From: a bacterium
GTDB lineage: Bacteria > Sumerlaeota > Sumerlaeia > MVZB01
Assembly: GCA_021372575.1 (NCBI GenBank)
Contig: JAJFUE010000185.1
Coordinates: forward strand, 14,018 to 78,017
Reading direction: 5' to 3'
Length of the DNA stretch: 64,000 nt
A program made the translations under genes and the position numbers. Below are positions 1,025 through 29,609 of this stretch, one piece after another (within the stretch, counting starts at the first letter, position 1; each line of letters begins with the position of its first letter). Under the pieces are notes generated by a model. The model did no database searches, was not told where the DNA came from, and saw only the letters and a list, made by a program, of their open reading frames with translations.

Positions 1025-2461
1025 TTACAGGCTCAAATTTGCATTTCGCGCTTGTGCGTCAGGTTTGGGTTTTGAACTGAATTTCAGGAGTTTGTTGTAG
1101 ATTGTTTTTTCGCTGATGCCGAGCATGCGCGCAGAACGTGCCTTGTTGCCACGACACGTCTCGAGCGTCTGATCGATGGCTATCCGCTCGAGTTCTTCGA
1201 GCGTCAGCCCCGCCAGCGGCCGGGCCGACGTGGTTCTAATCTCCTCGGCTGCGTGCCGGAGCGGGATCCTCTCGGCGCCGATTTGCGCCTCGTCACAGAA
1301 CGCCGAGGCCTGCTCGAGCACGTTTTCCAACTCGCGCATGTTCCCAGGCCAGTGGTAATGCTGCAACTTATCGAGTGCCTCTTGAGTAAGGCACTTGGTG
1401 GGCTGGTTATTACGCCGTCCAGCGCGATCGAGATAATGCTCCACCAGCGCCGGGATGTCGCTCGGGTGCTCCCGGAGCGGCGGTATCGCCAAGCTCCGGA
1501 CATTTAATTGCAGGAACAGGTCCTCTCGGAACATCCGCTCTCGCACCATGGCCTGCAAATCCCGGTTCGTCGAGGCGATTAAGCGCACGTCAACATGGAC
1601 ATCGTGATCGCCCCCGACCCGCTGAAACCTGCCATTTTGCAGGAATGTTAACAGCCTTGGCTGCAGATCAAGCGGTATATCGCCGACTTCATCAAGGAAG
1701 AGCGTACCCCCCTCGGCCATTTCAACCCGGCCAAGCCGGCGCTCGGAGTCCGCGGTGAATGAGCCGCGCTCATGACCGAACAGCTCGGACTCAACCAGCT
1801 CGCGAGGCAGCGTCGTGCAGTTGACGGTGATGAACTGGCCGGCGGCGCGAGTACTCGCTTGATGTATCAGCCGCGCGAGCAGGCTTTTCCCGACGCCGCA
1901 CTCGCCGGTCAGCAGCAGGTTACCGTCGAGCGGCGCAAGCCGGAGGGCGTTTTCGAGAACCCGGCGCGAAACGTCCGAGGTGCCAATGTAAACCAAGGGC
2001 GGTTCCGGGCTGACGATCGCCTGACGAAGCCGACGATTCTCAAGGTGTAATCTCCGGTTCTCGCGCCGCAGCCGGCCAAAGCGCGCTGCTTGGCGCACCG
2101 TGCTGACGAGTTCCTCGGGATTAAATGGCTTGGCTACATAATCAAACGCGCCATTTTTGCTCGCGCGGGCTGCGGCACGGATATCGGAATGCGCTGTGAT
2201 CATGATTGTCTGGATGTCGGGATGAATCCGCGTCATCTCAGCCAGACATTGCAGCCCATCGAGCACCGGCATACTCACGTCAAGCAGCGCCACATCGAGG
2301 TCCTCTGTCGCCTGGTCGAGCGCCTCACGACCGTTGCGAGCGGTCAGCGTGCGGAATCCCTGGCGCTCGAGCGTATAGTTGAGCAGTGTTCGGATATGCG
2401 CATCATCGTCAGCCACCAGAACCTGGATGGGAGTTTCTGTCATGTCGCCGGAAGTTTTCAT
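1025..2461 (-). CDS. NtrC-family response regulator (REC - AAA+ - Fis-type HTH)
   Basis: REC domain ([11 protein letters not shown]...LLDVSMP). Walker A is [23 protein letters not shown] sits where GAFTGA is expected. C-terminal HTH reads [15 protein letters not shown]. The ATG at 2461 is preceded by GGAGGA. Confidence 0.9.
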
Positions 2462-2598
2462 ACACCGTTTCCTCCGTTCAAATTGGATGACAACCACATC
2501 AGGGCGGAATGGGTCCCAAGGGTCCTATGGGACGAATGGGACCGATGGGACCTATGAATTTTCATTCCGCGTCCCGCACGCCGTATCGCATGGTGTAC

Positions 2599-4452
2599 TC
2601 AGGACCCAGGGCTGTCTTTTACGGGCAGCTTTACAAGCACTACTGTTCCGTAGCCGAGTTCGCTCCCAATTTCGACACTGCCACCGTGGCGCTCGATGAT
2701 TTCGTGGACGATCGCCAAGCCGAGGCCGGTCCCCGCAACCTCCATCCCCGGTCGGTGCGCGCGATAGAAACGCTCGAAAACATGCGGCAGATCGGTTTGC
2801 GAAATGCCGATGCCGGTATCGGTCACGGTGAGTGTCAAGCCGTCATGGTCGCCTGATGCGCCGACCGTGATCGTACCGCCGGGGGGGGTGAACTTGATGG
2901 CGTTGCTGAGGATGTTGATGAGCACGCGCTTGAGAGCCTCGAGATCGCCGATCGGGCGCGGCAGTGACTCGGCGATTTCCAGCTTCAGGGTCAATGCCGA
3001 CGATTCGATCACCGGCGAGAGCATGGTGCAGGCGGCCTCGATGAGCGTGGGGATTTCAATCAAGCGCCGCTCCATTTTCATACGGCCGCTTTCGAGGCGC
3101 GAGATCTCGAGCATATCCTCGATCAAGGCCTCCAGCCGCTGCGTCTCCTGGTCGATGATGTCGAGGAACTGGTTGCGCAGCGATTCGGTCATGGCGCCGT
3201 CCTGGCGCAGCGCCTTGGTGAAGCCCTTGATCGAGGTGAGCGGCGTTCGCAGTATGTGGCTGACCGAGCCGACGAAATCGGTCTTGAACTGGTCGATCTC
3301 TCGTTCGCGGGTCACGTCGCGCAGGATAAGAACCCGGCCGGCGATGCGGCAGGCCGGATCGACCCATGCGCTCGCCACGATGCGTAGCGTTCGCGGGCAG
3401 GGCTCGTGCAACACGAGCATGATCTCCTCGGCCCGGTCGGGCTGGCAGGCTTCGAGCATTTCCTTGAGGCGCGCAGGCGGGGGCGTGCAGTCGCCGAACA
3501 GCGAGGCAAGCATGCTGCCGGTGCCGGCCTGTCCGGTCACCTCGAGGAGCCCACGCGCGATGTGATTCATCATCGTGACACGATGATCGAGATCGGTGAC
3601 GATGACGCCATCGCCGATGCCGCGCACGATGAGCTCGAGGCGCTTGGCTTCCTGGTTGAGCCGCTCGTTGACGGTCTTAAGCTGCTCATTGGCGAGAGCG
3701 AGTTCGGAGGCCTGGCGCCCGACCTCGATCTCGGCCTCGCGCCGGGCTGTAATGTCTAGCCCGTAGAGGTTTAAATACTTTTCACCGGCCACCGGGGCGC
3801 AGACTATCAGCCATGTGTGGCCAGCAACGGTCAACTCGAACTGGCAGACAAGATTGTCGGCGAGGCAGCCGCAGACGCGTTCGAGCGGCTCCGACGGCAG
3901 CGGCCGGCCGACCTGGACCGACCATGCCTCAAGGAGTGGCGCGCTCGCCGTGTTGGCATACGTCAGCACGCCGGCATCGTTCACACGCATCACCGGATTG
4001 GGATCTACGGCCGGAAAGCGCGCCATGCTGGCCAGCAGCGTGCACATCTGTGTCTCGAGCGTGACGTCTCGGATCGAGCCAAAGTATCCTTCGATCGCGC
4101 CATTCGCATCGCGGATGATCGTCGCCGTGACGAGCGCATCAATGACCACGCCGTTGAAGGTATCGAGAGTGAGCCTGGCCTCACGGACAAAGCCCTCCTG
4201 CTCAAGGCGTCGGAAGAAATCTTCGCGAAGAGCACGGTCGGTGATCATCTCGGCGAGCGAGATTCCATCGCAGCCAAGGCCAATTCCGAGCAGGCGCACG
4301 GCGGCCGAATTAAGCTCAATGAATCTGCCGGCGGAATCAACCATGAACCACGGCTCGGCGACCTGCAGGAAAATACGGCGATAGTGATCGGGATCGGAGT
4401 CACACAAGTTGACACTGCCGCACATTTCTATATTCAGTCTCGCGAGGTCCAT
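2599..4452 (-). CDS. Cytoplasmic multi-PAS sensor histidine kinase
   Basis: H-box FVGSVSHILRTPLTSIKGF and HATPase G-boxes DTGIGI / GTGLGLAIV. Long N-terminal PAS-like repeats and no obvious TM segment. SD GGGAGGGG lies before the ATG at 4452. Confidence 0.9.
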   Translation of the reverse strand: MDLARLNIEMCGSVNLCDSDPDHYRRIFLQVAEPWFMVDSAGRFIELNSAAVRLLGIGLGCDGISLAEMITDRALREDFFRRLEQEGFVREARLTLDTFNGVVIDALVTATIIRDANGAIEGYFGSIRDVTLETQMCTLLASMARFPAVDPNPVMRVNDAGVLTYANTASAPLLEAWSVQVGRPLPSEPLERVCGCLADNLVCQFELTVAGHTWLIVCAPVAGEKYLNLYGLDITARREAEIEVGRQASELALANEQLKTVNERLNQEAKRLELIVRGIGDGVIVTDLDHRVTMMNHIARGLLEVTGQAGTGSMLASLFGDCTPPPARLKEMLEACQPDRAEEIMLVLHEPCPRTLRIVASAWVDPACRIAGRVLILRDVTREREIDQFKTDFVGSVSHILRTPLTSIKGFTKALRQDGAMTESLRNQFLDIIDQETQRLEALIEDMLEISRLESGRMKMERRLIEIPTLIEAACTMLSPVIESSALTLKLEIAESLPRPIGDLEALKRVLINILSNAIKFTPPGGTITVGASGDHDGLTLTVTDTGIGISQTDLPHVFERFYRAHRPGMEVAGTGLGLAIVHEIIERHGGSVEIGSELGYGTVVLVKLPVKDSPGS

Positions 4453-4534: not shown

Positions 4535-6106
4535 TTATTTGCAAAATCCTTTCCATTCAGATTGCAATTCCTCTCCTGAGTTAAATATAAATTTCATGAT
4601 GCCCTTTATGGTGACATTGTTCATGGCTTTTTCGTCATTCGACCGATGGACGGTTAATTCGACGATCGCTTGATCTATTTCTTCCTTTATTATTTCTATT
4701 TTTGCGGATATATGCGGCCCTTGCGCGTCCATTTTATTGAACACTTTGTCGATCTTTACAGGCTTGCCCGAATGTCGTTTTACCACAAATGTCTTGGTGG
4801 CATTCCCATTAGGCTTCAATACCCCCACATTAATATTGTTCGGCGCAATATAAATATCGCTCACGATATTCATTGTCACGGGAATGCGTATATCAGGATT
4901 TCCTCGCACCTTTGTTGCTATCTCCAAAGTGCCTCTTATGGGCCCGTAAGGCTCATTGTCTGGTATCGCCGTCTTTATCATCACTCGATATTTTATTGGT
5001 GTATTATCTATTGATACGATGCTCCGCTTGGCCGGCCATGACAAATCTACAGTCTCCTTCATTTTCCCTTCCGGGACATATTTGATTTCCGTAACAGGAG
5101 TATATTCTTTTTTCGCGATCTGTTCATATTTTATTTCGGTTCCCTCGATCATCAGGTCATGTTTTCCATCGCGTTCGGTCACTTCTATGTCCTGCGATAT
5201 CGTTTGCCCAGGATAGACATCACCATAATCCAATATGCTTTTCGATATATGCACTTTCTCATTTATAAAACCTGTATATTGCAACTCAGTTGTAGTCGAT
5301 ATCGGGTCATTGCTTTCAACGTACACCGAAAGATTTTGATATCCCGCACGTCCTAGCGCCGAAAGCAGCACAGTTATTTCAGCCATCTCGCCTGGGTTTA
5401 AGACAGGCTTGGATGCCGTCGCGCTCGTGCACCCACAACTTTTTTTTATGCGATTTATCATTAATGGCGCCCGTCCAGCGTTCCTGAACGGGAAACGAGC
5501 CCTTAACATTTCACAGGATTCAGTAGATCCAAAATCCATCAAGAGAGTATCGAATTCCAGGCGCGGAACTTTTTTAGCCTGCGCCATCTCTTTGCGCCGA
5601 ATAACCAGCGATTCGCCATGCCAGTATGTGCTTATGTCATTTTTACTTATCCACTCAGACGCCATTCCAGGACGATACATCCTCACCTCTTTGTGATTTC
5701 TCGGGTTTCTCTCCCTTGGGTCAACGCAACAATAATGATTATTATTGACATATATTATGACAGGGGTATTCAACTTGACCAGATCCGACCATGTCAACTT
5801 GACTCCCTCCGCCTGCAGTCCATACATTTCGGCAACTTGCTTGAGCCGAAACATTGACGCGCCCTTTTCGGTCAATTCACAAGCGTTTATTAAATCCGTA
5901 AGATCTAATGCTTTGCCAAGCCGTGCTGCGGCTATTCTTAAGGATATTGGCCCGCATGCGCGATTATTGCCAGCATCCGCAGGCTCAAATACATTATTAT
6001 CGGGCGCGTTATTCCATCGTACGGCCCCCAATATTGAGAAAGCTATAAATAGTGCGCACATAAACGCTATCAGATACATGCGATAACGACGAATATAGTT
6101 TTTCAT
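4535..6106 (-). CDS. Signal-anchored C39-like cysteine peptidase fused to DUF1573/Ig-like repeats
   Basis: The N-terminus KNYIRRYRMYLIAFMCALFIAFSILGAV is a positive-inside anchor. The C39-like core has NRACGPISL (catalytic Cys context) and NNNHYCCVD (His). A DUF1573 signature follows (FDFG...FxFxNxG...L.I..V..SCGCT, here MDFGS...FPFRNAGRAPLMINRIKKSCGCT), then two more beta-rich repeats. Confidence 0.75.
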   Translation of the reverse strand: MKNYIRRYRMYLIAFMCALFIAFSILGAVRWNNAPDNNVFEPADAGNNRACGPISLRIAAARLGKALDLTDLINACELTEKGASMFRLKQVAEMYGLQAEGVKLTWSDLVKLNTPVIIYVNNNHYCCVDPRERNPRNHKEVRMYRPGMASEWISKNDISTYWHGESLVIRRKEMAQAKKVPRLEFDTLLMDFGSTESCEMLRARFPFRNAGRAPLMINRIKKSCGCTSATASKPVLNPGEMAEITVLLSALGRAGYQNLSVYVESNDPISTTTELQYTGFINEKVHISKSILDYGDVYPGQTISQDIEVTERDGKHDLMIEGTEIKYEQIAKKEYTPVTEIKYVPEGKMKETVDLSWPAKRSIVSIDNTPIKYRVMIKTAIPDNEPYGPIRGTLEIATKVRGNPDIRIPVTMNIVSDIYIAPNNINVGVLKPNGNATKTFVVKRHSGKPVKIDKVFNKMDAQGPHISAKIEIIKEEIDQAIVELTVHRSNDEKAMNNVTIKGIMKFIFNSGEELQSEWKGFCK

Positions 6107-6198
6107 TATAGCATCGCCTTTTCACGCCTTACAGTATGACCCCAAGAGGTAAATCCCTCAATGCAATACTTAGTCGAAGAGCGGTGAATGAATTATAT

Positions 6199-7194
6199 CT
6201 ATTTGACAATTCCCTGGGATATATCGCTTGGCAATGGAACTACCACAAAGGGCATTCCATCTGCATCTATGCGGCTGAAGTCCATGATGGATGTGTCGGA
6301 AGGATAATTTGTCACACTATTTATGGATGCATCAAACAATGTCTGATCGTGAGTTGTTATATATTTTGTTATCCTTGTGGTCATCTTATAACTCCTTATT
6401 GGGAATTCCAGATCGCCATTGGCATACATGGGCAATTCCGCGTTCCAGTAATTCTGCGATTTGCATGTGAACAAAGGTTTTTCATGGCCGGAAAGAGTGA
6501 AAGATGCGCTTCTTACCAAATAATCGTGTTTGGTATCTATTTCCATCCGCCACATTCCTTTGTCCGACGAAAAGAGACTGCCTGGTCCCACTACGGTTGC
6601 AATCCCACCAGAATCGACCGTCGATGAAGTAATCGTATCGAGCAATTGAGAATAACCCCTGCCAAGAGATAAAAGATATCTGAAAAACAAATTCTCAGGA
6701 TCATGATGATTGACCGGATAGAGTTCAAGACGGGCGGCAAGTGCATCTGTTAATAAACTCGCTTCGCCTGTTTCTTTGAGAACACAATTGTCGTATTCTG
6801 ATCTGATCTTCCATGACGCGCCATCAAATGCGATGGTTCGCATTTTCATATTTGTCACAATGTAATTACCGGCACTGTCATAATCAAGAGGATTAGCCTT
6901 CTTTGAATAGCGAGATGCCCCAAGCAACGTCCTATTCTGAACCAAGGCGTATTTCCCATCATTTCCTGTGATTTGCAAGGTAAAGGTGCTTGGATCCTGA
7001 TCGACGCCTACGTTGGATTTACAACTCACAATCAGGTTCACGTTAAAATTGGATAAAAATTGAGCATCATAGGAATCTAATATGTCCTTAATGCTTTGGG
7101 CCTCGGCCGGATTAAAATGTTGCAACAACATAATCTGAACAAAATATACACACACTGTCATCATGAGTGAGCGTTGGCGGATTGACATCATCAT
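6199..7194 (-). CDS. Secreted hypothetical protein (no recognisable family)
   Basis: Signal peptide with AEA|QS. Low-GC gene, tightly packed between the Cys-rich gene and the C39 gene. Confidence 0.6.
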   Translation of the reverse strand: MMMSIRQRSLMMTVCVYFVQIMLLQHFNPAEAQSIKDILDSYDAQFLSNFNVNLIVSCKSNVGVDQDPSTFTLQITGNDGKYALVQNRTLLGASRYSKKANPLDYDSAGNYIVTNMKMRTIAFDGASWKIRSEYDNCVLKETGEASLLTDALAARLELYPVNHHDPENLFFRYLLSLGRGYSQLLDTITSSTVDSGGIATVVGPGSLFSSDKGMWRMEIDTKHDYLVRSASFTLSGHEKPLFTCKSQNYWNAELPMYANGDLEFPIRSYKMTTRITKYITTHDQTLFDASINSVTNYPSDTSIMDFSRIDADGMPFVVVPLPSDISQGIVK

Positions 7195-7215
7195 ATGACT
7201 CCATTAGTACAATAT

Positions 7216-7761
7216 TTAACAAATTATTAATCCATATCTTGTGGAAGACTCGATCAAAGTGCCGTCACAACCGGATGTATCGCAACGAAACCGAAATGCT
7301 CGCGGCGTACAATCGTGTCCAAAATGATGGACATATAAAACACGGAGTTCGCCCTGATAACTGGCTGCACAGCCAATGGAAGCCCTATAATATTGGATGA
7401 GAGACACTTGTTTTGTATTAATCGTCGCACTGCAACTAGATCCGCCATTTAAAGGACAATCGGCATCAAATATGTAATTGGCGATACACGCATCTGTTGC
7501 ACAAGGCTGAGGATAATCTTCCGTGTGGAAACATTCATCTTTTCTAAAAGCTGCATATTTACACCCCCCGCAGCAATCTCCCCCATGGATCGCTTGCATT
7601 TGTGAATCCGAAAGGGGGGATGATGCACAATTCATCTTGAGCGATAAAATCACGAGTATGCCGATAATGACGATCAATGCCGTTGCGGAGATGGTAAGTA
7701 GTGACTTCACGAAATAGCAATCCTTTGAGTTAATGTGATGAGCCGCTGAGAAGCGCCTCAT
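7216..7761 (-). CDS. Cys-rich exported protein with signal anchor followed by a double-glycine motif
   Basis: N-terminal TM segment SLLTISATALIVIIGILVILSL, then LSDSQMQAIHGG|DCCGGC. About 14 Cys occur in the ~120 residues after the GG. An alternative internal start, MNCASS at 7635, would give a 19-aa GG leader. Confidence 0.6.
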   Translation of the reverse strand: MRRFSAAHHINSKDCYFVKSLLTISATALIVIIGILVILSLKMNCASSPLSDSQMQAIHGGDCCGGCKYAAFRKDECFHTEDYPQPCATDACIANYIFDADCPLNGGSSCSATINTKQVSLIQYYRASIGCAASYQGELRVLYVHHFGHDCTPRAFRFRCDTSGCDGTLIESSTRYGLIIC

Positions 7762-7809
7762 CTATCGTTCACGCTTTCATGAGTGAGGTCTAAGTCCACC
7801 ACTCCCCTT

Positions 7810-8517
7810 TCACCTTTGGCCTCCCATTGATTTGCCCACTTTTGTCTCAGCTGGCGGCTTGGTCATTGCGGAATTTTTGCGGGTTAATAACCCCACTCCT
7901 GTTGCCGATTCTCTGGGCCTGAGATATTCTTTTAAAACTCTGTGACCCATATAACCCAACGGCAGCGCAATCAATATTAGGCACACTGCCGCCAGCATTT
8001 CAATGGGCACCCCGACCCTTGCAGAATTTCTGTAGACCATATCTCGAACTAATATTAACGATTCTCCGGCCCCGATATATTTTATTAGCACTTGTTGACC
8101 CATGTAGCCCAACACCGGCAGCGCAATCACTAATATGCACATGGCTGCGGCCAGCTTATAACCATATCGCCTGAACCCGGCTGCACATGTTTCGCGGTAG
8201 GTCGCCTGCTCAGTCTCGCACTCATTGATGCGAACCATAAGGTTCGCGACCTGTTCCTCGATGCTTGGCTCGCCCGCCATCCCGCGCCGCAGCTGCTCCA
8301 AATTATAGCAAAGCTCGGAAGTCCGTTCCCACTCGGCCCGGCATTCGGGACACTCGCTCAAGTGCTTCTCGATGGCGCCAAACTGAAGCCGGGACAGCGA
8401 GGGATCCCAGTGGTGATAAGCGCCCAGACGCAACCTGACCCACCGGCAACTGGGTACGCGGCCAGCAAGCAATTGCAGGCATTCTTTCAACCCACGGGCT
8501 ATTCTTCTCAGCTTCAT
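7810..8517 (-). CDS. Anti-sigma factor (zf-HC2) with duplicated TM hairpin
   Basis: HLSECPECRAEW zinc-finger anti-sigma motif. Two near-identical TM modules are present (CILVIALPVLGYMGQQVLIKYI and CLILIALPLGYMGHRVLKEYL). It lies downstream of an ECF sigma gene. Confidence 0.75.
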   Translation of the reverse strand: MKLRRIARGLKECLQLLAGRVPSCRWVRLRLGAYHHWDPSLSRLQFGAIEKHLSECPECRAEWERTSELCYNLEQLRRGMAGEPSIEEQVANLMVRINECETEQATYRETCAAGFRRYGYKLAAAMCILVIALPVLGYMGQQVLIKYIGAGESLILVRDMVYRNSARVGVPIEMLAAVCLILIALPLGYMGHRVLKEYLRPRESATGVGLLTRKNSAMTKPPAETKVGKSMGGQR

Positions 8518-8552
8518 CTGCCTTTGCCCTCTCTTCTGCCCTCTGCATAGAC

Positions 8553-8580
8553 ATGTCGAAAAGGGACGATTTTATAACAT
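8553..8580 (-). promoter_or_regulatory. ECF-type promoter candidate ATGTTA-N15-TCGACAT
   Basis: Motif read on the minus strand, 35 nt upstream of the anti-sigma ATG. The same bipartite motif occurs at 12391-12417 (-) and 28490-28516 (+). Confidence 0.45.
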
Positions 8581-8638
8581 CGACGCATAAAAATATTTCA
8601 ATTATTTTGGGGATGATTGATATTATATGAGTTACGCA

Positions 8639-9202
8639 TCAGCTTTTCTTGTCTTTTTCCATGATCGCGCGAAGACGGGCGCGTGCGCGCCACTCATAAA
8701 CCTGAATAGATGCCTCCCCCAGCCCTAGCCGGCGAGCTGCCTCGGCTTCCGAGCAGCCCTCGAAATACAGCAGGTTGATTACATGCCGAAGCCGGTCGGG
8801 CAGTTGCGCGACAGCCTCGCGAAGTTGGTCCAGACCTTCTGCCTGTGTGTCAGAACCCGAGCCGCTCTGAGTTACCGACCATGTCTGGGCTGTTTGCTTG
8901 AGTTCTTTTTCGATCCGCTTAGTTTTCGACACCTGCCGCCCCTTGGCCAAGAGCAGTTTCTTGGCGATCCCGAACAGATAAGGGCGGACCTTGTCTTTTT
9001 CGATCCTCCCCCGCTTGGCCCAATATGTCAAAAAGCTATCTTGGACCAGGTCTTCCACATCGTCCCGTCGGATGTTACGGCCAGCAAAAAAGCGCGCGAG
9101 CGCGGACCAAAGATTTCCATAAGGCTCGTCGGTGGGCCCGAGATCAGTATTGGAAGACCTATTGTCCAGCTTTTTCATGTGTTCATGATGGTTCCCTGTC
9201 AA
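8639..9202 (-). CDS. ECF-family RNA polymerase sigma factor (copy 1)
   Basis: Region 2 reads DVEDLVQDSFLTYW. Region 4 HTH reads LPDRLRHVINLLYFEGCSEAEAARRLGLGEASIQVYEWRARARL. The likely ATG start is at 9178. Confidence 0.85.
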   Translation of the reverse strand: MTGNHHEHMKKLDNRSSNTDLGPTDEPYGNLWSALARFFAGRNIRRDDVEDLVQDSFLTYWAKRGRIEKDKVRPYLFGIAKKLLLAKGRQVSKTKRIEKELKQTAQTWSVTQSGSGSDTQAEGLDQLREAVAQLPDRLRHVINLLYFEGCSEAEAARRLGLGEASIQVYEWRARARLRAIMEKDKKS

Positions 9203-9507
9203 ACCCTGGGGTTATTCTTCCCGAAAATTTACGCCGGATGCAATCTTCAAGTGTTTCGTTCGGACATTTCCCCATAAATTCCCACGCTTAGCGAAGGAAA
9301 ACGGATCGGTCTGGGTCGAATCCTCAGCGTGTGTTTGATGAGGCTCGAATGAAGGTCGCAGGCGGTTGCGCCAGACGATCGAGGTGGCTCGGCAGGGAGG
9401 ACATGCTGGAGACGGCACCCAGAGCAAGCCGCGCGACCGGACTCCGCATGGACGGACGCATGGGAGAGTAGTCAGGTCGTGATTCTCACCACTAATCTCT
9501 ATCACCA

Positions 9508-10467
9508 CTAGAATATATCAGGTAGCAACGATTGGATATCATCGATCTTCGGAAGATCATCATCCCAATACCGCAAGGACTTGCCGTCGTGGATCAGGTA
9601 AAAGCGTGGTGGTGCATTGCCGATGAATTCAAAGAACTTAAGCGGCTGAACACGTGCCATTGGGAATTGGGGCTTGAACTGCTCGCGGAACTGGCGGAGG
9701 GTGTCTTCCTCGCCAAGAATCAGGCCGACAACCGGTAACTCGCCGAACTCCTTGACAAGAGTGTTCATCCTCGAAACCAATTCCTGGCAATGCGAACAGG
9801 AATCACTCATAAAGCCGACAAAATATATACCCTTGCCCAAGTCGAGAGCTCGATTTGAATCGTCTTTGATAGCGAACTGCGCAAAGGGGCGATCCGTTGT
9901 GGTGGGGGGCTTTGCTACAGCCAGCCCGGCGTCAGACTTGACCGGTTTACCGCCCCAAAAGCTCCAGGCGAGACTGGCAATCAGCAAAAGCGGGCAGAAT
10001 GCGGCACATGCCGTCTGCAGTTTCTTGCTCCTGATATCCAATTCAAACGATTGGCTCTGAAATGATTGCGATGCACCACTTATTGCGATCACATTCATTC
10101 CGATCATGATAACATTCTTTATAATCGAGGCAATCGGCGATATTTTGATGAATGAGCCGAAACACCCGCAGTCTTCGAGGCCTTTGAAAAGCCAGCCGTA
10201 AACGATGATCCCGGTGAAGAAGATGAGTATCGCCAGGGAGAGCTTCAAGCATTCCACCCTAAAATGCTTACTTATGATCATGACCAAGCCGAGGAGAAAC
10301 TCGATAGAGATTATGAAAATGGCGATGGCTGTGACAAGTGTTGGGTTACGAATAATGTTAAAGTATGAGATCAGCATGGCGAAGCTTTGGACTTCGATTG
10401 CTTTCGCGATGGAGGAAAGCAAGAAAATGCTTCCAAGCAGGCAGGTAGTGAAGATGAACCGCTTCAT
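9508..10467 (-). CDS. MauE/DoxX-like membrane domain fused to TlpA-like thioredoxin (CxxC)
   Basis: Multi-TM N-terminal half with the CGCFG motif typical of MauE. The C-terminal thioredoxin fold has FMSDSCSHCQEL. Start taken at MKRFIF. Confidence 0.75.
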   Translation of the reverse strand: MKRFIFTTCLLGSIFLLSSIAKAIEVQSFAMLISYFNIIRNPTLVTAIAIFIISIEFLLGLVMIISKHFRVECLKLSLAILIFFTGIIVYGWLFKGLEDCGCFGSFIKISPIASIIKNVIMIGMNVIAISGASQSFQSQSFELDIRSKKLQTACAAFCPLLLIASLAWSFWGGKPVKSDAGLAVAKPPTTTDRPFAQFAIKDDSNRALDLGKGIYFVGFMSDSCSHCQELVSRMNTLVKEFGELPVVGLILGEEDTLRQFREQFKPQFPMARVQPLKFFEFIGNAPPRFYLIHDGKSLRYWDDDLPKIDDIQSLLPDIF

Positions 10468-10945
10468 TTGATTTTCCGACTGTCTGATCACTTTGAATAA
10501 GATTTCTTTGAGATTGCATCGACCGGCATATCGAGACATATGGAGCCGATCGAGACTTTTGCATTACCCATTACCGCACTCTTGGGTGATATTTTGCGAC
10601 GGATGACGTTTCCGTTCAACACAAATTCGTGGTGGTGTCATACCCCATTAGAAATGTCACCCCAACACCGCCTTGCATTTGCGCGATGATTGATTGCTCA
10701 GGGCCGAAGATAGGGTTCCATGGGGACGCGACCCGAGCACCGCACCGGAGGCCGAAGCAGAGCGGGTGCGGCCCTTGCGAGCCGTCCCTCTCTTTTTGCC
10801 ACCACGGTCCGTCCCCGACTATTTCCGGCCGGCCCGTCCTCGATCCTACTTCGGGTTGGAAGAATCGACAGAAGGCGTGAAGAGAAGAAAAGAAAACCCG
10901 GAAAATCCAACACTGCACCACTATCTTAGCGCTAATCCGGACAGT

Positions 10946-12361
10946 CTATTCAATAGTTGTTATTTGTGAATACGCAACCCATCCTTTCTTCATATTGGAA
11001 TGAAGATGGGCATGCATTTCGATCACGAGGCCAAGCCTAAATGCGTACTCATCTGTAATGCACGATTTAGAATCATATTTTATCCTAACAACATCATTAA
11101 GCACTTCACTACATGTTTTTGACAACGTCCTCCATCGCAAATCCGGTATGCAGCGTGATGTGATAATTATATAAATCAGCGCCCGTCTTAACCGAATATG
11201 ATCGCCAAGTATTTGATCCGCATAATCATAATCGGCTTTCTCGACATTGCCTACCGATTTATTTTCATGGCCAGATGTTGTTTGGTCCGGATCTCCTGAT
11301 ATTGGGATAAACGACACAAGCGCTTTTGGGAACCGGCCTTCAATTGACAAATCAGAATAATTGAGCGGCGGCAATTGTTGTTTACCGCCATCTTCAAGTT
11401 GCAACATGCAACCAGCAATCGCTGCGGCGCGTTTCATGGCGTCGATCGTGGGTCGGACGTTGGGGTCTTCGGGCTTGATCGGGTAATCAAAACGGAAAAT
11501 CTCGCCTGAGTAGAAAACAAGCGCGCGCCAGCCGGCCGGCCGAGTAACTTCATCGGTCCAAATCTTCTTGGCCCAGTCGGGGATATAAGCCGGCTTGCCG
11601 TTCCAGTTGATGCCGTATTCGGGTTTGGTGAGAACGTCATAAACCCACATGATGTGCGGGTATTCCTTGCGCGCCCAGGCTTCCCACTCGGCCTCGGTGT
11701 GCGGCAGCATCGCCTCGACCTGCACCTGCGCCAGGGTTTGTTCGAATCTCCGGTCTAGCTCAATCAACGATTCGGCAGGAAAGCTATTGAGGCGATCATA
11801 ACGAATTGTTGAGTGATCGTTCGCCGCGTGATGTCCAGGCTTGAGCACGACGATTTGATTTTCACATTTCGTTGAATCCGATAATCGAATATAGGCCAAT
11901 GCGTCCTTTGATTGTTTGTGGTAATCAACCAGATATTTACCGATCTGCGCAAGAACGGGAAAGCCTAAGGCGAGCAAGCATACCACCGCGAGACCGTAAG
12001 CCCATCGTCGAGCACAGACTCTTTTGGGGCTCTTGAACTCTCTCGACCTGCTGGTTTCGTATTTGGCAATTTTCAATAATGCTGCGGACGCAATGTCATC
12101 CGAATTTAAGTGGCTTGGCTCCTGGTTTCTGCGCAGTTGCTCAACGCAATTGCACAAGGAACAGGTGGCCTCCCACTCGGCCGCGCATTCGGGGCAGTGA
12201 GCAAGATGTTTCTCAATTGCGGCATATTTGCGGCATGAGAGCGAGGGATCCCATGCGTAGTAAGCCCCAAGACGCAATTGGACCCAGGCGCAACCGGGAT
12301 CCTTCCCCAGCATCAGCGTGAAGCACCTTATCATCGCGTCTATGGTTTTTATAAAGCCCAT
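10946..12361 (-). CDS. Anti-sigma factor (zf-HC2) with one TM and a ~320-aa extracytoplasmic domain
   Basis: HLAHCPECAAEW. The N-terminal ~90 aa are clearly paralogous to 7810-8517 (WVxLRLGAYxxWDPSLS...AIEKHL). The TM segment is LAVVCLLALGFPVLAQIGKYLV. Confidence 0.75.
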   Translation of the reverse strand: MGFIKTIDAMIRCFTLMLGKDPGCAWVQLRLGAYYAWDPSLSCRKYAAIEKHLAHCPECAAEWEATCSLCNCVEQLRRNQEPSHLNSDDIASAALLKIAKYETSRSREFKSPKRVCARRWAYGLAVVCLLALGFPVLAQIGKYLVDYHKQSKDALAYIRLSDSTKCENQIVVLKPGHHAANDHSTIRYDRLNSFPAESLIELDRRFEQTLAQVQVEAMLPHTEAEWEAWARKEYPHIMWVYDVLTKPEYGINWNGKPAYIPDWAKKIWTDEVTRPAGWRALVFYSGEIFRFDYPIKPEDPNVRPTIDAMKRAAAIAGCMLQLEDGGKQQLPPLNYSDLSIEGRFPKALVSFIPISGDPDQTTSGHENKSVGNVEKADYDYADQILGDHIRLRRALIYIIITSRCIPDLRWRTLSKTCSEVLNDVVRIKYDSKSCITDEYAFRLGLVIEMHAHLHSNMKKGWVAYSQITTIE

Positions 12362-12390
12362 CTCCAACCTTGCAACCCTTTATAATTTAT

Positions 12391-12417
12391 ATGTCGAGCA
12401 CAGGGCATTTTTAACAT
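12391..12417 (-). promoter_or_regulatory. ECF-type promoter candidate ATGTTA-N14-TCGACAT
   Basis: Minus-strand motif about 29 nt upstream of the anti-sigma ATG (12361), within the 100-nt sigma/anti-sigma gap. Confidence 0.45.
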
Positions 12418-12469
12418 TTCAAGAAGAATATATTTTTGAAGACACCTTATAATACTGATTCTCTTTATC

Positions 12470-13030
12470 TTATGACACATCGGATCCCGGCTCCGGGGTT
12501 TCGATTTCTATCGATTGAAGCATAAGCATTTGTCCCAATCTTTGAATCGCACGATGATCGGCCATATACACCGCCGGCATCGAGATTCCAAGTTCATGGG
12601 CGACATCCGCGTGGGTTTTTCCTGCGAAATGAATCAGTTCGGCAACTTGTCGTAGTCGCGGCGGCAACAACTTGATCATTGCGCGGATTCGTTTCATCAT
12701 CGATTCGTCATGTTCTTGTGTAGTATTTTCCTGAACAGACACGATGATCGGCCATGCATTGATGAGTTGTGCCCGTCGCTTTGCCTCGAGGCCCATTTTC
12801 CGGCGATAAGCGAGGGTGAGTTTATGGGCAATACCGAATAGAAAGGATCGTTCTTTGCCTTCCTGGATTTCATTGCGTTTAATCCATAAGGTTAAGAGGC
12901 AATCCTGTATCAGGTCATCGATATTGTCCGGATGCACGCCGGTGGAGCGAATAAATCGGCTCAACGCTGCACTATGCTCCCTGCATAGGGCCCTTATCGT
13001 TTCCTCCGTGAACCTGGGTGGGTGTTTCAT
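12470..13030 (-). CDS. ECF-family RNA polymerase sigma factor (copy 2)
   Basis: Region 2 reads DDLIQDCLLTLW. Region 4 reads LPPRLRQVAELIHFAGKTHADVAHELGISMPAVYMADHRAIQRL. Confidence 0.85.
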   Translation of the reverse strand: MKHPPRFTEETIRALCREHSAALSRFIRSTGVHPDNIDDLIQDCLLTLWIKRNEIQEGKERSFLFGIAHKLTLAYRRKMGLEAKRRAQLINAWPIIVSVQENTTQEHDESMMKRIRAMIKLLPPRLRQVAELIHFAGKTHADVAHELGISMPAVYMADHRAIQRLGQMLMLQSIEIETPEPGSDVS

Positions 13031-13042
13031 ATTTTATTGAAT

Positions 13043-15418
13043 TTATTTCTTTTCCAACTTGCGAATGTATTCTTTTGCCTGGCGCGTGAATTGGCCACTT
13101 GGATAAAGATTGGCGAGATCATTAAAAGGGCGCACGGCTTCCTCGAGCTTGTTTTCCCTAATGTAAGAATAACCAATCAAATACAAAGCGCGTTCGCGGT
13201 ATTGCCGCGAATCACGATTCTGGACAATCGAGAGTTCATTGCGTGCATCGTCGTAACGCGAGGCCCCAATCAAAGCAAGTCCCAGCAGTGTGCGAACTGG
13301 AATGTCCTGGTATTCTTTCGGAAGCGTCTTTATAAGCGAATTTAAATCCATAACCGCCCGCTCGTATTTCTGATTATCCATTAATATTTTTGCAGCGCGC
13401 AACCGGGCATTATAGTCGTATTCGGTATTCTGGCAGATTCTTGATAATCTCTTCTGAATACCGATTGCATTCTCCGGCTGCTTGAGCTGTTTCTCATACA
13501 GGTCTGTTATCCTATTCGCCACACCGACGATGAAAGTGGTGGTCGCACCCGTTGAATATGAATCTACGATTTTCGTCAGGTGGCGTATTTCATTTTCATA
13601 CGAATGAATACGATTGTATTCATCCGCCATAAATAAATGGTACTTTTCGCCATACGGAACAGGCTCGATGGCTTTTTTAGATTCGACATTCGCATCCATC
13701 CATTTGAGCATTTTGGCCACGTCATAGTTATCGTAATGCTTCGCAAGTCTCTCCTTCAGAAATGTTCCGATTTCCTCCACGTTGCTCGATCCGTTACTGA
13801 ATCTAGTGGCCATATCATTCAGTGCGATCTGGATCAGTTCATCACGATCGCTCGATATATTCATAGTCAGCCCTGCAATTTGCGAGAGCGTTGATATTTG
13901 GGAATATTGATCCTGCAATGAGGCAAGTCGGCTGTATTCACTCGTTTTTTTCGCACCAGACGAGGACTTCTTTTTTAGATCGGCCTCGCGGGTTAGGATT
14001 TCATTCCTCAAGGGTTTAATAAAATCAGGGTCCGGGGAGCGGTCCACAATCCATGTAAATATCTTTTTTGCAGAAGCTGTGCACCCAAGAGCCTTTGGCA
14101 TATTTCCAAGATTATTCCATATTTCTGCTTCATCGAGCAGGTTGCATATTTGTGCGCTGACGCGGCAATAAGAAAGCAGGAATGCACTGTTATGGTCGCC
14201 AGATAATTTCTCGAGTTTATCAAACGGGATTTTCATAGAGTATTGCCGGTTTAACAGAGGATCTGAGATAACGTTGATACTGTTCGCCGCACCGTCAATT
14301 CGCATCCTGACGCCTTCGCTGATAATTGAATACGCCTGCGTTTGCGACGGCGATGACTCCGCAAGCCGAATCGAGATCGGGTCCCTGATGAAGTAATCGC
14401 TGGAGGTATTTCCGGTGAACGTCGTCTTCCGCAAACTGACTTCTATGGGTTTACCGCTACCGGCTATAGAACTTAGGCCGATCGTATTATTACGAATGGA
14501 GCAGTTTTCAACAATGAGTCCAGGACAATTGAGCCGATTCAGCTCAACCCCAACGGAATTGTGATGAATGATGGTGTCCTTGATTTTCCAGTGGATGCCC
14601 TGATTTTCCTCGAGCTTAAGCGCCGAAGATGTTGAGCCGTCAAACGTGCATGCGGAAATGACTGACGGATAGCTGGTTGACCCTTGCAACGCGTTTCGAT
14701 TCCCATTGATATAAACGCCATTAACATTACTTGTGAACGTGCATTTGTTCATGTTGAGTGTTGTGGAACTGTAGCCTTGGGAAATCCTGACCAGAACGCC
14801 GGTTCGGTTTTTGGAAAACGAGATGTTTTTGGCTTCAATGTGGCTTTGCCGACTATTTTGCACGACCATAGCATCAGTCTTGTGCTCCGAGAACGAGCAA
14901 TTTTCCAAGTGTATATCGTTGGATATGCTGTTCATATACATCCCGTTGATTCTTACGCCCTCTCCCCGATTCTTCGCGAATGTGCAACCGACAATATTCA
15001 AGCTAATATCATTCAGCACACTTATGCCAATTCCATAATTCTCGAAGATATTCATATCGCAGAGGGAGAGGCTTGTCGGCTTTTTTGACTTCGAGACGCG
15101 TATAGCATCGTCCATGCATCGGTTTACAATGATGCCAGACAGCGAAACAGTACCGGCCTCATCGCAGACCAGAATGCCAGGACCGGTAGGATTATTGATG
15201 ACTAGTTTTTTATTTGCATCGCCAGCGATCGTGATGTTCTTTTTTAGAACGATTCCTTTTAGATATACATAACCTGCTCCCACATGGATCGTATCGCCCA
15301 TACTTGATTTTTCGATCGCTTCACCGAGATCCTTGATATCCTGCGGAACACGAACGTCTTTCGCCAGTGCCACGGAAGACAATACGAGTATCATGATCGA
15401 TTTAAGAATCAATTTCAT
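13043..15418 (-). CDS. Secreted right-handed beta-helix (PbH1 repeat) protein with C-terminal TPR region
   Basis: Signal peptide ALA|KD. Repeated xNCxFxxNxxxGVxI units are present (e.g. VGCTFAKNRGEGVRING, ENCSFSEHKTDAMVV, NKCTFTSNVNGVYING, ENCSIRNNTIGLSS). The C-terminal third has TPR-like helices. Confidence 0.7.
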   Translation of the reverse strand: MKLILKSIMILVLSSVALAKDVRVPQDIKDLGEAIEKSSMGDTIHVGAGYVYLKGIVLKKNITIAGDANKKLVINNPTGPGILVCDEAGTVSLSGIIVNRCMDDAIRVSKSKKPTSLSLCDMNIFENYGIGISVLNDISLNIVGCTFAKNRGEGVRINGMYMNSISNDIHLENCSFSEHKTDAMVVQNSRQSHIEAKNISFSKNRTGVLVRISQGYSSTTLNMNKCTFTSNVNGVYINGNRNALQGSTSYPSVISACTFDGSTSSALKLEENQGIHWKIKDTIIHHNSVGVELNRLNCPGLIVENCSIRNNTIGLSSIAGSGKPIEVSLRKTTFTGNTSSDYFIRDPISIRLAESSPSQTQAYSIISEGVRMRIDGAANSINVISDPLLNRQYSMKIPFDKLEKLSGDHNSAFLLSYCRVSAQICNLLDEAEIWNNLGNMPKALGCTASAKKIFTWIVDRSPDPDFIKPLRNEILTREADLKKKSSSGAKKTSEYSRLASLQDQYSQISTLSQIAGLTMNISSDRDELIQIALNDMATRFSNGSSNVEEIGTFLKERLAKHYDNYDVAKMLKWMDANVESKKAIEPVPYGEKYHLFMADEYNRIHSYENEIRHLTKIVDSYSTGATTTFIVGVANRITDLYEKQLKQPENAIGIQKRLSRICQNTEYDYNARLRAAKILMDNQKYERAVMDLNSLIKTLPKEYQDIPVRTLLGLALIGASRYDDARNELSIVQNRDSRQYRERALYLIGYSYIRENKLEEAVRPFNDLANLYPSGQFTRQAKEYIRKLEKK

Positions 15419-17457: not shown

Positions 17458-17793
17458 TTTCACACCTCGCGGTTGCACATATTTACCCGCCGGATAGGTT
17501 ATGACCCCCCGCCAGCAACGCCCAAGACTAAAATATTTACAGCCCCAGCCTCCGCAGTATAGCAGGATATTTCGTAGAAAGAGGTGATATTAATTGATCT
17601 TCTTTCATTCTTGTAAGCTTCTAACGTAGGTATGTTCGACATGTCAATTGAAATATTGATAACTCAAAGCTTAGCATTGTAATATTTACCGTGCGCGCGT
17701 TTAAGCCCCCCCAGTGCAAGTTATTGAGATATAGGGCTTGAAAAAAATGAAATACTAAGTAATCTTGCGCCATTGCTATCGTGGATTTCAAAA

Positions 17794-18171
17794 ATGGCGC
17801 GCTACATCAACCCACCAAGTCCGATAAGGGGAGTTCTTCTGCTGGAGCTCGCGTTGTCGATGTTGATCATTTCTGTGGCCCTGCTTGGCCTCATGGAAGG
17901 CTACCGCGCATCCACGGAAGCCAATGCGCGTTATGATCGTATGGCGGATTTACAGCTCTTGGCCGACCAGAAGATCGCGGAGCTCTCGCAACAAGCGCAA
18001 TTCAAGACGGGCCAGGACGAGGCTGTTTTCCAAACCAAACCCGACGTGAGTTGGCAAACCGTTACGGCTGAGACTGCTGCCCCGAATTTATACATGATCA
18101 ATTTAGAAGTATCGAAGCAGTCCGATAATTTTCGTATATCCCTCTTTATGAGGCCGAAGAAGGCGCAATGA
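17794..18171 (+). CDS. T2SS minor pseudopilin, GspI-like
   Basis: Prepilin-like N-terminus RG|VLLLELALSMLIISVALLGL (Glu at +5). Small size and a C-terminal beta region (DVSWQTV...LYMINLEVS). Confidence 0.6.
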   Translation: MARYINPPSPIRGVLLLELALSMLIISVALLGLMEGYRASTEANARYDRMADLQLLADQKIAELSQQAQFKTGQDEAVFQTKPDVSWQTVTAETAAPNLYMINLEVSKQSDNFRISLFMRPKKAQ

Positions 18172-18830
18172 GCTGTTACCGCCAGAGAAGATTCAAGAAC
18201 AGCTTGACCCTTGTCGAGCTTGTGGTTGCCCTGGCAGTGATGTCCGCAATCGGCGGAATCGCAATTGAGACGCTTGTTCTCGTGATGAAACAGCAGGAAG
18301 TCATGGAAGAATCGAGAGAGACCTTCGACGCCATCCAATGTTTGGATCTGGTTATTCGAAGCTGCATCCAAAACCTCGTGCCCGGGCCCATCGGCGAAGT
18401 TCAGCCATTCAGCCAACGGACAGAGCCGAATGGAGGCATGACTTACCAGTTCCTCAATAGAGTGCCTGAGAATTACAACTTTCGAGATAAATCGGAAAAG
18501 TCCTCGGCAACGATTGCGCTGCTCGTTGGTTTGAGGGTCGTTCCAGACACAAATGAGAGTCTTGTCCTAAACCTCGAATATTCCACTCAATTCGTTGGAT
18601 CTTCAGGTCCCATCGATGAGCCTGAAGTTCAGTCGTTAGTCAAGAGCTTGACCCAGTTCTCGATCAAGTCACAAGGTGCAGAGGGAGACGATGAATCGTC
18701 AACCCTTCCAAAGGCATTCAACGTACATGCCGAATTTAACGTGTCCAATGGAAGCCCGGTTGTTTGGGATAACTCTTATTATGTCAAAGTCAGCCGGCCC
18801 AAGACTGAGACCAAGGAGGAAAAAGAATGA
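18168..18830 (+). CDS. T2SS minor pseudopilin, GspJ-like (non-canonical cleavage site)
   Basis: The N-terminus KNS|LTLVELVVALAVMSAIGG has the hydrophobic helix and Glu+5, but Ser where the -1 Gly is expected. An ATGA overlap couples it to the upstream gene. Confidence 0.55.
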   Translation: MSCYRQRRFKNSLTLVELVVALAVMSAIGGIAIETLVLVMKQQEVMEESRETFDAIQCLDLVIRSCIQNLVPGPIGEVQPFSQRTEPNGGMTYQFLNRVPENYNFRDKSEKSSATIALLVGLRVVPDTNESLVLNLEYSTQFVGSSGPIDEPEVQSLVKSLTQFSIKSQGAEGDDESSTLPKAFNVHAEFNVSNGSPVVWDNSYYVKVSRPKTETKEEKE

Positions 18831-22752: not shown

Positions 22753-22778
22753 CATTCTGCGATTTTTAAGACAGGGGA

Positions 22779-26704: not shown

Positions 26705-26721
26705 AAAGGTGCTCAAGACGA

Positions 26722-28391: not shown

Positions 28392-28489
28392 ACCAGTTAT
28401 TTTGCACATCCAGATCATGAATATGCGCGGTAAAAACCAGCGCATATCGGCCTAGCTGTTCAATAAATCTGAAAATATTTTCACTTCCG

Positions 28490-28516
28490 ATGTTAGATTC
28501 CGCATCCAATCGACAT
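28490..28516 (+). promoter_or_regulatory. ECF-type promoter candidate ATGTTA-N14-TCGACAT (third copy)
   Basis: Same bipartite motif as the two copies upstream of the anti-sigma genes, here on the plus strand 229 nt upstream of the ATG at 28746. Confidence 0.4.
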
Positions 28517-29591: not shown

Positions 29592-29609
29592 TCGTTAATT
29601 GGATGTCGA

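Follow-up and report, generated by a model that had tools for sequence, protein, structure and literature searches.

A Sumerlaeota gene block and a candidate Sec-dependent cassette that pairs C39-DUF1573 peptidases with cysteine-rich double-glycine proteins

The 64-kb stretch of bacterial DNA analysed here (64,000 nucleotides of contig JAJFUE010000185.1, lineage Sumerlaeota; hereafter the window) carries ten consecutive genes on its minus strand, between positions 4535 and 17478. Eight of these (4535-13030) follow one another in the order given in an earlier note made from the sequence alone. Pfam and NCBIfam searches confirmed the domains named there; the matches to the thioredoxin fold and to zf-HC2 were sub-threshold, the CSHC motif and both HxxxCxxC motifs being present in the proteins concerned. 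The last gene of the block encodes a peptidase of 523 amino acids (aa) in which a C39 domain is joined to DUF1573 (4535-6106). Upstream from it lie the gene for a secreted companion protein (331 aa, 6199-7194) and the gene for a Cys-rich protein with a double-glycine (GG) motif, referred to below as the cargo (7216-7710). Two pairs of extracytoplasmic function (ECF) sigma and anti-sigma factors and a fusion of MauE with a putative thioredoxin domain (MauE-Trx) occupy the middle of the block, and two secreted proteins with tetratricopeptide repeats (TPR) are encoded at its head. The low GC content ascribed to the block by the earlier note was observed, in uneven form (0.43 at 4535-7761, 0.53 at 7810-9202 and 0.49 at 9508-13030, against about 0.60 in the flanks). 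The low-GC segment also reaches farther than described, to 17478, and takes in the two secreted TPR genes, which belong to the module. Comparison with other loci delineated a conserved four-gene cassette, widespread and apparently undescribed, that consists of a secreted TPR protein, a GG-cargo, a LolA-like partner and a C39-DUF1573 peptidase.

The peptidase is made up of an N-terminal anchor, the C39 domain, a DUF1573 immunoglobulin-like (Ig) domain with a CxC motif, and further Ig-like domains. Pfam matches covered residues 47-172 with Peptidase_C39 (PF03412; 68.4 bits for a cut-off of 22) and residues 183-279 with DUF1573 (PF07610; 75.5 bits for a cut-off of 26.1), in addition to a HYDIN/VesB-like Ig domain. 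Whether the Cys and His of the C39-like region line up with catalytic residues was a point on which the earlier note had staked its proposal. Cys51, within the motif ACGPISL (5939-5959), and His124, within NNNHYCC (5726-5746) and aligned to the HFVV motif of C39 structures, match the catalytic residues of LahT150 and, through a profile of 43 family sequences, those of PCAT1, ComA and LahT. The same profile matched the PCAT1 structure 4ry2 in the PDB at 2.3e-19, the values for 4ry2, 3k8u and 6mpz all lying at about 1e-18 to 1e-19. Both residues (in ACGPISL and NNNHY) were invariant in a family alignment; among aligned relatives, the catalytic Cys was found in 109 of 115 and the His in 118 of 126. 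The third residue of the triad is a different matter. It is Asp in the family consensus (DPP, aligned to ADPGKG of PCAT1) and D, N or E in 114 of the 126 relatives. At this site, where an Asp or Asn is looked for some 16-20 residues after the His, the window protein has Arg145 (MYRPG, 5666-5680), a residue found only in the window's representative, and two orthologues have Tyr or Cys. The window orthologues are 65-68% identical and share the same gene order.

An exhaustive HMMER search of 1.84 billion representatives returned 672 proteins matching the profile at E<1e-30, and more than 100 of the best 150 were C39+DUF1573 fusions of 420-620 aa. The extreme rarity of peptidase and cargo suggested by word-indexed searches, which gave three or four members, was thus a sensitivity artefact. 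At the N-terminus of the window peptidase, K2, R6, R7 and R9 are followed by 19-20 hydrophobic residues (residues 11-29, 6020-6076; hydropathy 2.45 over 19 residues), a pattern predicting an anchor with its N-terminus inside and its C-terminus outside. A hydrophobic stretch precedes the catalytic Cys in 117 of 121 relatives (about 97%); usually it is a plain signal peptide that runs directly into LCGPxxL. A number of members (P0036, P0044, P0050, P0051, P0068, P0074 and P0086) carry a conserved N-terminal extension of about 140 aa (...LKRILEKTPMLERLTE...) ahead of the C39 domain, possibly a cytoplasmic domain with a transmembrane segment after it. In the eleven family members with an extension longer than 100 aa, no Pfam domain was found in the extension, and nothing therefore points to an anti-sigma domain fused there.

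The CxC motif of the DUF1573 domain reads SCGCT in the window protein (residues 223-227, 5426-5440) and is conserved in relatives. Among 126 relatives, 121 have the one Cys and 117 the other, so that the motif is better conserved than the protease Cys; about 5% of the family lack the nucleophile (S or G in its place) and still keep the CxC. Ser or Gly replaces the catalytic Cys in P0043, P0076, P0081, P0091, P0092, P0099 and the L009 protein (1193-2647), some of which also lack the His. Most of these members retain the CxC of DUF1573, the second Cys being absent from P0099, and they look like pseudo-peptidases that keep a non-proteolytic function. A selenocysteine/cysteine pair is a standard sign of a redox-active site. 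As DUF1573 is listed among the prokaryotic selenoprotein families with a UGC motif (PMC9312934), SCGCT is a candidate site of thiol-disulfide exchange.

The cargo gene had been assigned an ATG start at 7761, giving the open reading frame (ORF) 7216-7761. A GTG at 7710 is the more likely start: the homologue P0003 begins there, and the first 17 residues of the longer ORF are poorly conserved. The resulting protein of 164 aa, whose delimitation draws on homologue alignment, conserved gene order and a strict motif scan, is laid out as an export signal or anchor (MKSLLTISATALIVIIGILVILSL, 7639-7710; hydropathy 2.92, kept in homologues), a GG propeptide (LSDSQMQAIHGG, 7579-7614, with L-12, M-7, I-4, G-2 and G-1) and a 120-aa domain with 13 Cys, 10 of them invariant. 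The segment around the GG site reads SSPLSDSQMQAIHGG and is followed by DCCGG. A word-indexed search retrieved only two homologues (62-63% identity), and a scan of genome contigs with the cargo alignment gave no match. Two elements were conserved in all cargo homologues, the hydrophobic segment MKSL(F/L)TI...ILSLK and the motif LSxSEMQxIYGG. We also considered a start at Met43, which would leave a classical cytoplasmic leader of 19 residues (MNCASSPLSDSQMQAIHGG); it was rejected because the hydrophobic segment upstream is conserved and P0003 begins at the GTG, and Met43 is replaced by V or I in homologues. For the same reasons, the ordinary reading of the cargo as a precursor with a cytoplasmic GG leader was set aside.

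No Pfam or NCBIfam family covers the cargo. The ORF 7216-7761 gave a weak match to TIGR04149, a model for GG-leader precursors of RiPPs (peptides made on the ribosome and altered after translation) that are modified by radical S-adenosylmethionine (radical-SAM) enzymes; at 19.1-19.3 bits this match is below the cut-off of 25 and is confined to the leader region. The leader model was weakly matched by 6 of 29 cargo proteins, and the cassette contains no radical-SAM gene. The cargo proteins constitute a new family of small, fast-evolving proteins built on a Cys framework.

A logo of 23 non-identical cargo proteins showed, for positions outside the selection, L at -12 in 22 proteins, E or D at -8 in 17 and M or L at -7 in 20. 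Both the window propeptide and the logo conform to the classical consensus of a hydrophobic residue at -12, an acidic one at -8, hydrophobic ones at -7 and -4, and GG. The classical leader is placed at the extreme N-terminus of a precursor that lacks a Sec signal; here it is preceded by 26-39 residues with the features of a signal peptide. In all 28 cargo proteins with a scorable GG site, one to five Lys or Arg residues are followed by an uncharged run of 10-26 residues, and in 26 of the 28 an AxA-like site lies just before L-12. From these features, most cargo proteins are predicted to be cut first by signal peptidase, leaving a GG propeptide of 12-16 residues. In the subclade of the window the hydrophobic core is 18-22 residues long and the signal-peptidase site weak or absent (there is none in L003), and the cargo may stay anchored in the membrane until the GG cut, as the earlier note had proposed. 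We infer that the C39 domain cleaves after the Gly-Gly of its cognate leader.

Scans of genome and metagenome collections yielded 50 more loci, including metagenome-assembled genomes (MAGs) of Armatimonadota and Omnitrophota. The loci sampled are those that could be reached with two peptide patterns, and the frequencies given are not a census. The cargo genes found near C39-DUF1573 genes encode a signal peptide, the L(-12)/E(-8)/M(-7)/I(-4)/GG leader and a domain with 9-19 Cys. A strict pattern was defined as a hydrophobic stretch, the motif [LVIM]x4[MLIVQA]xx[IVLFM]xGG, and a tail of 60-160 aa with at least 8 Cys. Within 3.5 kb of peptidase genes, this pattern occurred 26 times in 203 kb (24 of 32 loci); the remaining 158 kb contained a single match. 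Thus, cargo and peptidase genes are associated far beyond chance, and the co-occurrence of GG-bearing homologues with the peptidase, on which the earlier note had made its case depend, was borne out. The lone outlying match belongs to L008, where two more ORFs with predicted secreted products follow immediately downstream; the one at 2956-3912 encodes a LolA_like paralogue. Among the loci without a strict match, L040 and L043 have variant motifs, the cargo gene of L006 is apparently frameshifted, L041 has the companion gene and no cargo ORF, and L009 includes little upstream sequence and a peptidase without the Cys. The others (L011, L012 and L056) are weak partial matches and not clearly C39-DUF1573 genes.

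The arrangement of cargo and peptidase recurs in distant lineages. In the lineage of the window (L001, L003) the gene order is MauE-Trx, sigma, anti-sigma, cargo, companion, peptidase. The high-GC locus L004, whose peptidase is only about 21% identical, encodes a TPR protein, a 138-aa protein with a signal peptide (LSPAEAEVVVGG followed directly by ACYPQC...), a secreted protein of 289 aa and a C39-DUF1573 protein. Cargo and LolA-like genes duplicate as pairs: two pairs occur in L036, and in L047 two adjacent pairs lie upstream of a single peptidase gene, with a third companion and cargo gene downstream. These duplications suggest arrays of cognate pairs served by one processing enzyme. Regions with multiple pairs or with extra LolA-like paralogues extend over 3945-9904 in L047, 927-6852 in L036, and 1429-3912 and 10243-11280 in L008.

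The gene following each cargo gene belongs to one family. The companion encoded in the window, a "secreted orphan" in the earlier note, falls into this family by alignment across loci and is probably a divergent LolA-like member of it. The LolA_like model PF17131 was matched by 9 of 28 companions (best value 6.9e-8), and the family profile matched PDB entries described as outer membrane lipoprotein-sorting proteins (9tp6 at 8.6e-5, 3bk5 at 6e-4). Over the same 17 loci, the median pairwise identity was 38.8% for the peptidase, 18.7% for the companion and 24.6% for the mature cargo, the last value falling to 12.9% when the shared Cys columns are left out. The processing enzyme is therefore conserved, and cargo and partner diverge fast around a fixed Cys framework.

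Neighbouring genes were surveyed by running Pfam on 147 proteins from about 23 non-redundant other loci, the 25 most frequent of 124 families being listed. TPR repeats were found in 19 of the 147 proteins, LolA_like matches occurred as well, and in many other loci the cargo gene is preceded by TPR genes. No ABC transporter, ECF sigma factor, MauE, thioredoxin or type II secretion system (T2SS) family was among the 25 most frequent. In the window, the TPR protein nearer to the cassette (791 aa, 13043-15418) heads the low-GC block and combines TPR with a Beta_helix match (6.3e-12) and a signal-like N-terminus; the other (673 aa, 15457-17478) has TPR, YfiO-like and BamD-like matches. The TPR proteins, the LolA-like protein and the redox-type CxC of DUF1573 are conserved elements that the earlier note had not included. 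In two other lineages, at L008 (9382-9971) and L009 (2652-4190), the gene after the peptidase gene codes for a signal peptide, a thioredoxin-like region with CxxC (CGYC or CSEC) and a membrane domain. With weak matches to Thioredoxin_2 and TraF, the product is a candidate for a different disulfide-handling protein.

The MauE-Trx gene of the window (9508-10539) probably starts at Met25 (10467), as judged from the orthologue in L001. It matches MauE (PF07291) at 64.4 bits, well over the cut-off of 27. By hydropathy, the protein has five hydrophobic segments; the motif DCGCFG (residues 123-128; CGCFG at 10156-10170) lies between segments 3 and 4 (100-118 and 136-154), and CSHC (9787-9798) follows segment 5. 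MauE has been reported to replace DsbB in E. coli, with an active site formed by a periplasm-facing CGC between transmembrane segments 3 and 4 and a conserved Phe after it, and 8.2% of MauE entries are fused to a domain of the thioredoxin superfamily (preprint 10.64898/2026.03.05.709764). The motif in the window protein is as that preprint describes, and in view of the fusions it reports, MauE-Trx would be an oxidase of the DsbB/DsbA-like type already known; the sole novelty is that a putative disulfide-rich client is encoded next to it. Precomputed matches to AhpC-TSA, Redoxin and Thioredoxin_8 exist for the L001 orthologue, some possibly due to an extra WCPPC domain. This orthologue (L001 522-1955, 477 aa) has an additional C-terminal TlpA-like domain (WATWCPPC), and the fragment at the beginning of L003 (82-327) is consistent with the same domain. 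The window protein ends before this domain, and the intergenic region that follows (9203-9507) is shorter, which suggests that the TlpA-like domain was deleted in the lineage of the window.

Both sigma factors, sigma 1 (8639-9202; Sigma70_r2, r4_2 and ECF matches, TIGR02937 at 60.9 bits) and sigma 2 (12470-13030; Sigma70_r2 and r4_2, TIGR02937 at 54.6 bits), have regions 2 and 4 and exceed the TIGR02937 cut-off of 42.9. Each is followed by an anti-sigma gene whose product contains HxxxCxxC and scores sub-threshold with zf-HC2. Anti-sigma 1 (235 aa, 7810-8517), conserved in L001 and L003, has HLSECPEC (8341-8364), two hydrophobic segments, a zf-HC2 score of 19.8 bits and an NCBIfam antisigma match of 3.4e-6. 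Anti-sigma 2 (473 aa, 10946-12367), with HLAHCPEC (12185-12208) and weak zf-HC2 and antisigma matches, is paralogous to anti-sigma 1 at the N-terminus and continues through one transmembrane segment into a C-terminal domain of about 320 aa that matches no known family. Both anti-sigma factors weakly match the model of RsrA, a thiol-sensing anti-sigma factor. About 100 nucleotides upstream of sigma 1 are conserved among the window, L001 and L003. The core of this stretch is not repeated anywhere in the window, so that no ECF regulon can be defined.

No ABC signature motif was found in any frame of the window and the C39 motif occurs only once; a Pfam census of the remaining 30 large ORFs likewise showed no ABC transporter, in agreement with the earlier note. 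Promoter-like sites of the sigma-70 type and terminator-like sites were no commoner in our scans than in shuffled sequence. A T2SS operon that looks complete (pseudopilins, GspG among them, an M-like protein, secretin, the GspE ATPase and GspF) lies on the plus strand at 18168-27942. It is divergent, being transcribed away from the TPR end of the cassette, and adjacency is the sole link between it and the module. Directly downstream of the peptidase gene, the minus strand encodes a PAS histidine kinase (2599-4452) and a sigma-54-dependent response regulator (1025-2497). In L003, too, the peptidase gene is succeeded by the beginning of a gene for a PAS protein of this kind (5264-6115), so that the neighbouring two-component system may have been conserved in this lineage. 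At 28000-33000 lies another block of low GC content (0.42-0.49), with large ORFs that have no Pfam match (for example 29709-31523, 604 aa, and 27378-28445); it may be a further acquired island. The Pfam census of 28000-64000 listed two radical-SAM proteins, ecotin, a DUF2092 periplasmic protein, a TolC-like OEP, a sulfatase and an SNF2 helicase.

In the usual account, C39 peptidases and double-glycine leaders form a cytoplasmic pair coupled to ABC exporters, in the production of bacteriocins, RiPPs and quorum-sensing peptides. The cassette shares with these peptidase-bearing transporters of the ATP-binding cassette type (PCATs) and AMS systems, represented by PCAT1, ComA/ComC and LahT, the peptidase fold, its Cys and His, and the recognition motif (L-12, E-8, M/L-7, I/V-4, GG). 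It differs in lacking ABC transmembrane and ATPase domains, fused or nearby; indeed, the match of the window peptidase to NHLM_micro_ABC1 covers only model positions 12-130 of 710. It also differs in that the leader stands behind a signal peptide and not at the N-terminus, in that the cargo is a disulfide-rich protein of 90-120 aa and not a small peptide, and in the fusion of the peptidase to DUF1573 and other Ig-like domains. Because Sec-type signals are carried by both peptidase and substrate, cleavage would take place in the periplasm.

A precedent for a C39 peptidase in this compartment exists. FapD of the Pseudomonas Fap amyloid system is Sec-exported, independent of ABC transporters and active in the periplasm; its target is not known, and a canonical GG leader is lacking (PMC5557850). 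FapD and the window protein have in common a C39 domain without an ABC exporter, periplasmic in the former and predicted to be so in the latter. They differ in that the window protein scores 14.6 bits with the FapD model NF058616 (cut-off 330) and has no Fap genes around it, and in that FapD, with a profile length of 224, has no DUF1573. [quoted passage not shown] As the cargo has no Trp, it cannot form the tryptophan tryptophylquinone (TTQ) cofactor. As for LolA_like (PF17131), the companions resemble it through the 9 matching members and the solved structures, and they differ by their strong divergence, by being one-to-one with cargo genes, and by the lack of evident Lol machinery or lipobox. 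No paper joining C39 and DUF1573 and no description of such a cassette was found in the literature searched; searches for periplasmic or stand-alone C39 peptidases gave only FapD, and those for C39 with LolA, cysteine-rich proteins or VKOR nothing relevant. The cassette appears to be undescribed, with the qualification that a periplasmic C39 domain, one element of the combination for which the earlier note knew no described system, is not in itself without precedent. The parts of the cassette and its recognition code are familiar; new is that they would operate in the periplasm and depend on Sec, in company with LolA-like, TPR and CxC-Ig partners.

On balance we favour, with moderate confidence in the scheme as a whole, a mechanism that includes periplasmic GG cleavage and in which the block is a lineage-specific elaboration of the four-gene cassette. 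The cargo would be made with a Sec-type signal peptide (perhaps an uncleaved signal anchor in the subclade of the window), followed by the GG propeptide of 12-16 residues and the 120-aa domain. The peptidase would be anchored by its N-terminal hydrophobic segment, its C39 domain on the periplasmic side, where it would recognise the propeptide as the C39 domains of PCATs do and cut after the GG. The cut would release the mature cargo, in the window subclade possibly from the membrane. Oxidation of the cargo cysteines in the periplasm would be the task of MauE-Trx, acting as a DsbB/DsbA-like pair in one chain, and the CxC of DUF1573 would probably join in the thiol-disulfide exchange. The LolA-like protein may bind its cargo, either to carry it or to protect it in the manner of an immunity protein, periplasmic scaffolding may fall to the TPR proteins, and the two ECF sigma/anti-sigma pairs would control expression in the lineage of the window. 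The core of this scheme, a Sec-exported GG precursor met by an exported peptidase in the absence of an ABC exporter, had been proposed in the earlier note; the conserved motif, the signals, the leader consensus and the recurrence of the arrangement all argue for it. None of the outcomes that the note had named as contrary to its proposal was observed: the Cys and His align with catalytic residues, the GG motif and the linkage to the peptidase are kept, and peptidase and GG site are not predicted to lie on opposite sides of the membrane.

Several observations weigh against this mechanism. The topology is predicted from hydropathy and the positive-inside rule only. The triad Asp is missing from the window peptidase and two orthologues, whose activity may consequently be reduced. 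AlphaFold2 returned unusable models for the cargo (three sequences, pLDDT 35.6) and for the companion (single sequence, pLDDT 35.1), and the window companion, searched alone, matched no family and not LolA. The thioredoxin-fold match of MauE-Trx around CSHC reached 18.7 bits with AhpC-TSA, under the cut-off of 26. Finally, MauE-Trx and the ECF pairs were seen only in close relatives of the window and are linked to the cargo by adjacency alone. The participation of MauE-Trx in oxidative folding, as put forward in the earlier note, remains plausible since the window protein has the CGC motif of the MauE that replaces DsbB, but the protein lies outside the conserved module; the ECF pairs, which the note had counted as part of its own module, do not belong to the conserved one, to judge from the 25 most frequent neighbour families.

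The missing Asp is the main caveat for the window, and it leads to the main rival of the mechanism above, namely that the C39-like domain binds the GG propeptide without cutting it. The domain would then be a docking or chaperone module similar to the C39-like domain of HlyB: cargo already cut by signal peptidase would be handed on to the CxC domain and to the LolA-like partner, with the propeptide left in place or taken off by another protease. HlyB offers a parallel, as its domain uses the C39 fold for substrate binding and is among the PDB matches of the family profile (3zua, 2.1e-8), a likeness bearing on the pseudo-peptidases and the Asp-less subclade; it differs in being cytoplasmic and in having no catalytic Cys, whereas the window protein has both Cys and His. 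The members without a nucleophile that retain CxC, and the better conservation of CxC in general, fit docking as well. Against it, the window protein and about 95% of its relatives keep Cys and His, and about 90% of them have D, N or E at the third site, a degree of conservation that speaks for a catalytic family. The GG, strictly conserved and at a set spacing from L-12, M-7 and I-4, bears the mark of a scissile site, and FapD, a periplasmic C39 protein, needs its catalytic Cys for function (PMC5557850). We judge docking without cleavage to be unlikely.

A second alternative is that the cassette of the window is mainly an envelope signalling device, in which the peptidase or the processed cargo would switch on the ECF regulons by way of an anti-sigma factor's extracytoplasmic domain and the LolA-like protein would play a part similar to that of RseB. 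RseB has a LolA-like fold, two ECF pairs are set among the genes of the cassette and retained in L001 and L003, and the domain of about 320 aa in anti-sigma 2, outside known families, could be such a target. But the 25 neighbour families most often met at the other loci include no ECF genes, so that signalling cannot be the general function of the cassette; moreover, the stretch conserved upstream of sigma 1 has no second copy in the window, and the strict scan found no GG-leader motif in either anti-sigma factor. This alternative appears quite improbable. The least probable is that the N-termini are not export signals at all: the cargo would be a GG precursor with a long leader, an unlinked PCAT would process it in the cytoplasm and export it, and the C39-DUF1573 protein would have another substrate. 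In favour of this, GG leaders are classically cytoplasmic substrates of PCATs, PCATs are among the PDB matches and the view of this genome is limited to 64 kb. Against it, all 28 scorable cargo N-termini are Sec-like in n-region charge, uncharged core and, for the most part, AxA-like sites, and the peptidase, companion and TPR proteins bear signals too. No ABC gene occurs in the window or in the list of the 25 most frequent neighbour families, the linkage between cargo and C39-DUF1573 genes is tight, and the disulfide-rich domain and the MauE oxidase imply that the cargo is located outside the cytoplasm.

A broader proposal, which we hold to be possible but doubtful, extends the favoured mechanism to a widespread Sec-dependent pathway, in Armatimonadota, Omnitrophota and unplaced lineages, for making disulfide-rich proteins of about 100 aa without ABC exporters. 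In such a pathway the leader would serve as a periplasmic handle, the CxC of DUF1573 would fold or oxidise the cargo, the C39 domain would set it free, and the LolA-like protein would be its immunity protein or carrier. As every cargo has its own fast-diverging LolA-like partner, the cassette would then represent a new class of production system for toxins or effectors. If so, it would also hint at the kind of substrate that an orphan periplasmic C39 peptidase such as FapD might recognise.

The cutting step at the double glycine has been thought of as cytoplasmic, performed at an ABC exporter. The pairing described here, found in dozens of metagenomic loci and in MAGs of at least two phyla (Armatimonadota and Omnitrophota) with no exporter nearby, indicates that this step probably also occurs outside the cytoplasmic membrane, as far as can be judged from sequence. 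If the cleavage is real, GG-leader processing operates in the periplasm as well, and genome mining that requires a PCAT, or that discards precursors with signal peptides, would miss a whole class. Orphan periplasmic C39 peptidases, FapD among them, would gain a testable model of substrate recognition. MauE, put forward as an oxidase only recently, would be linked with a client protein of its own, and DUF1573, a large uncharacterised family, would gain the hypothesis that it is a CxC thiol-disulfide module.

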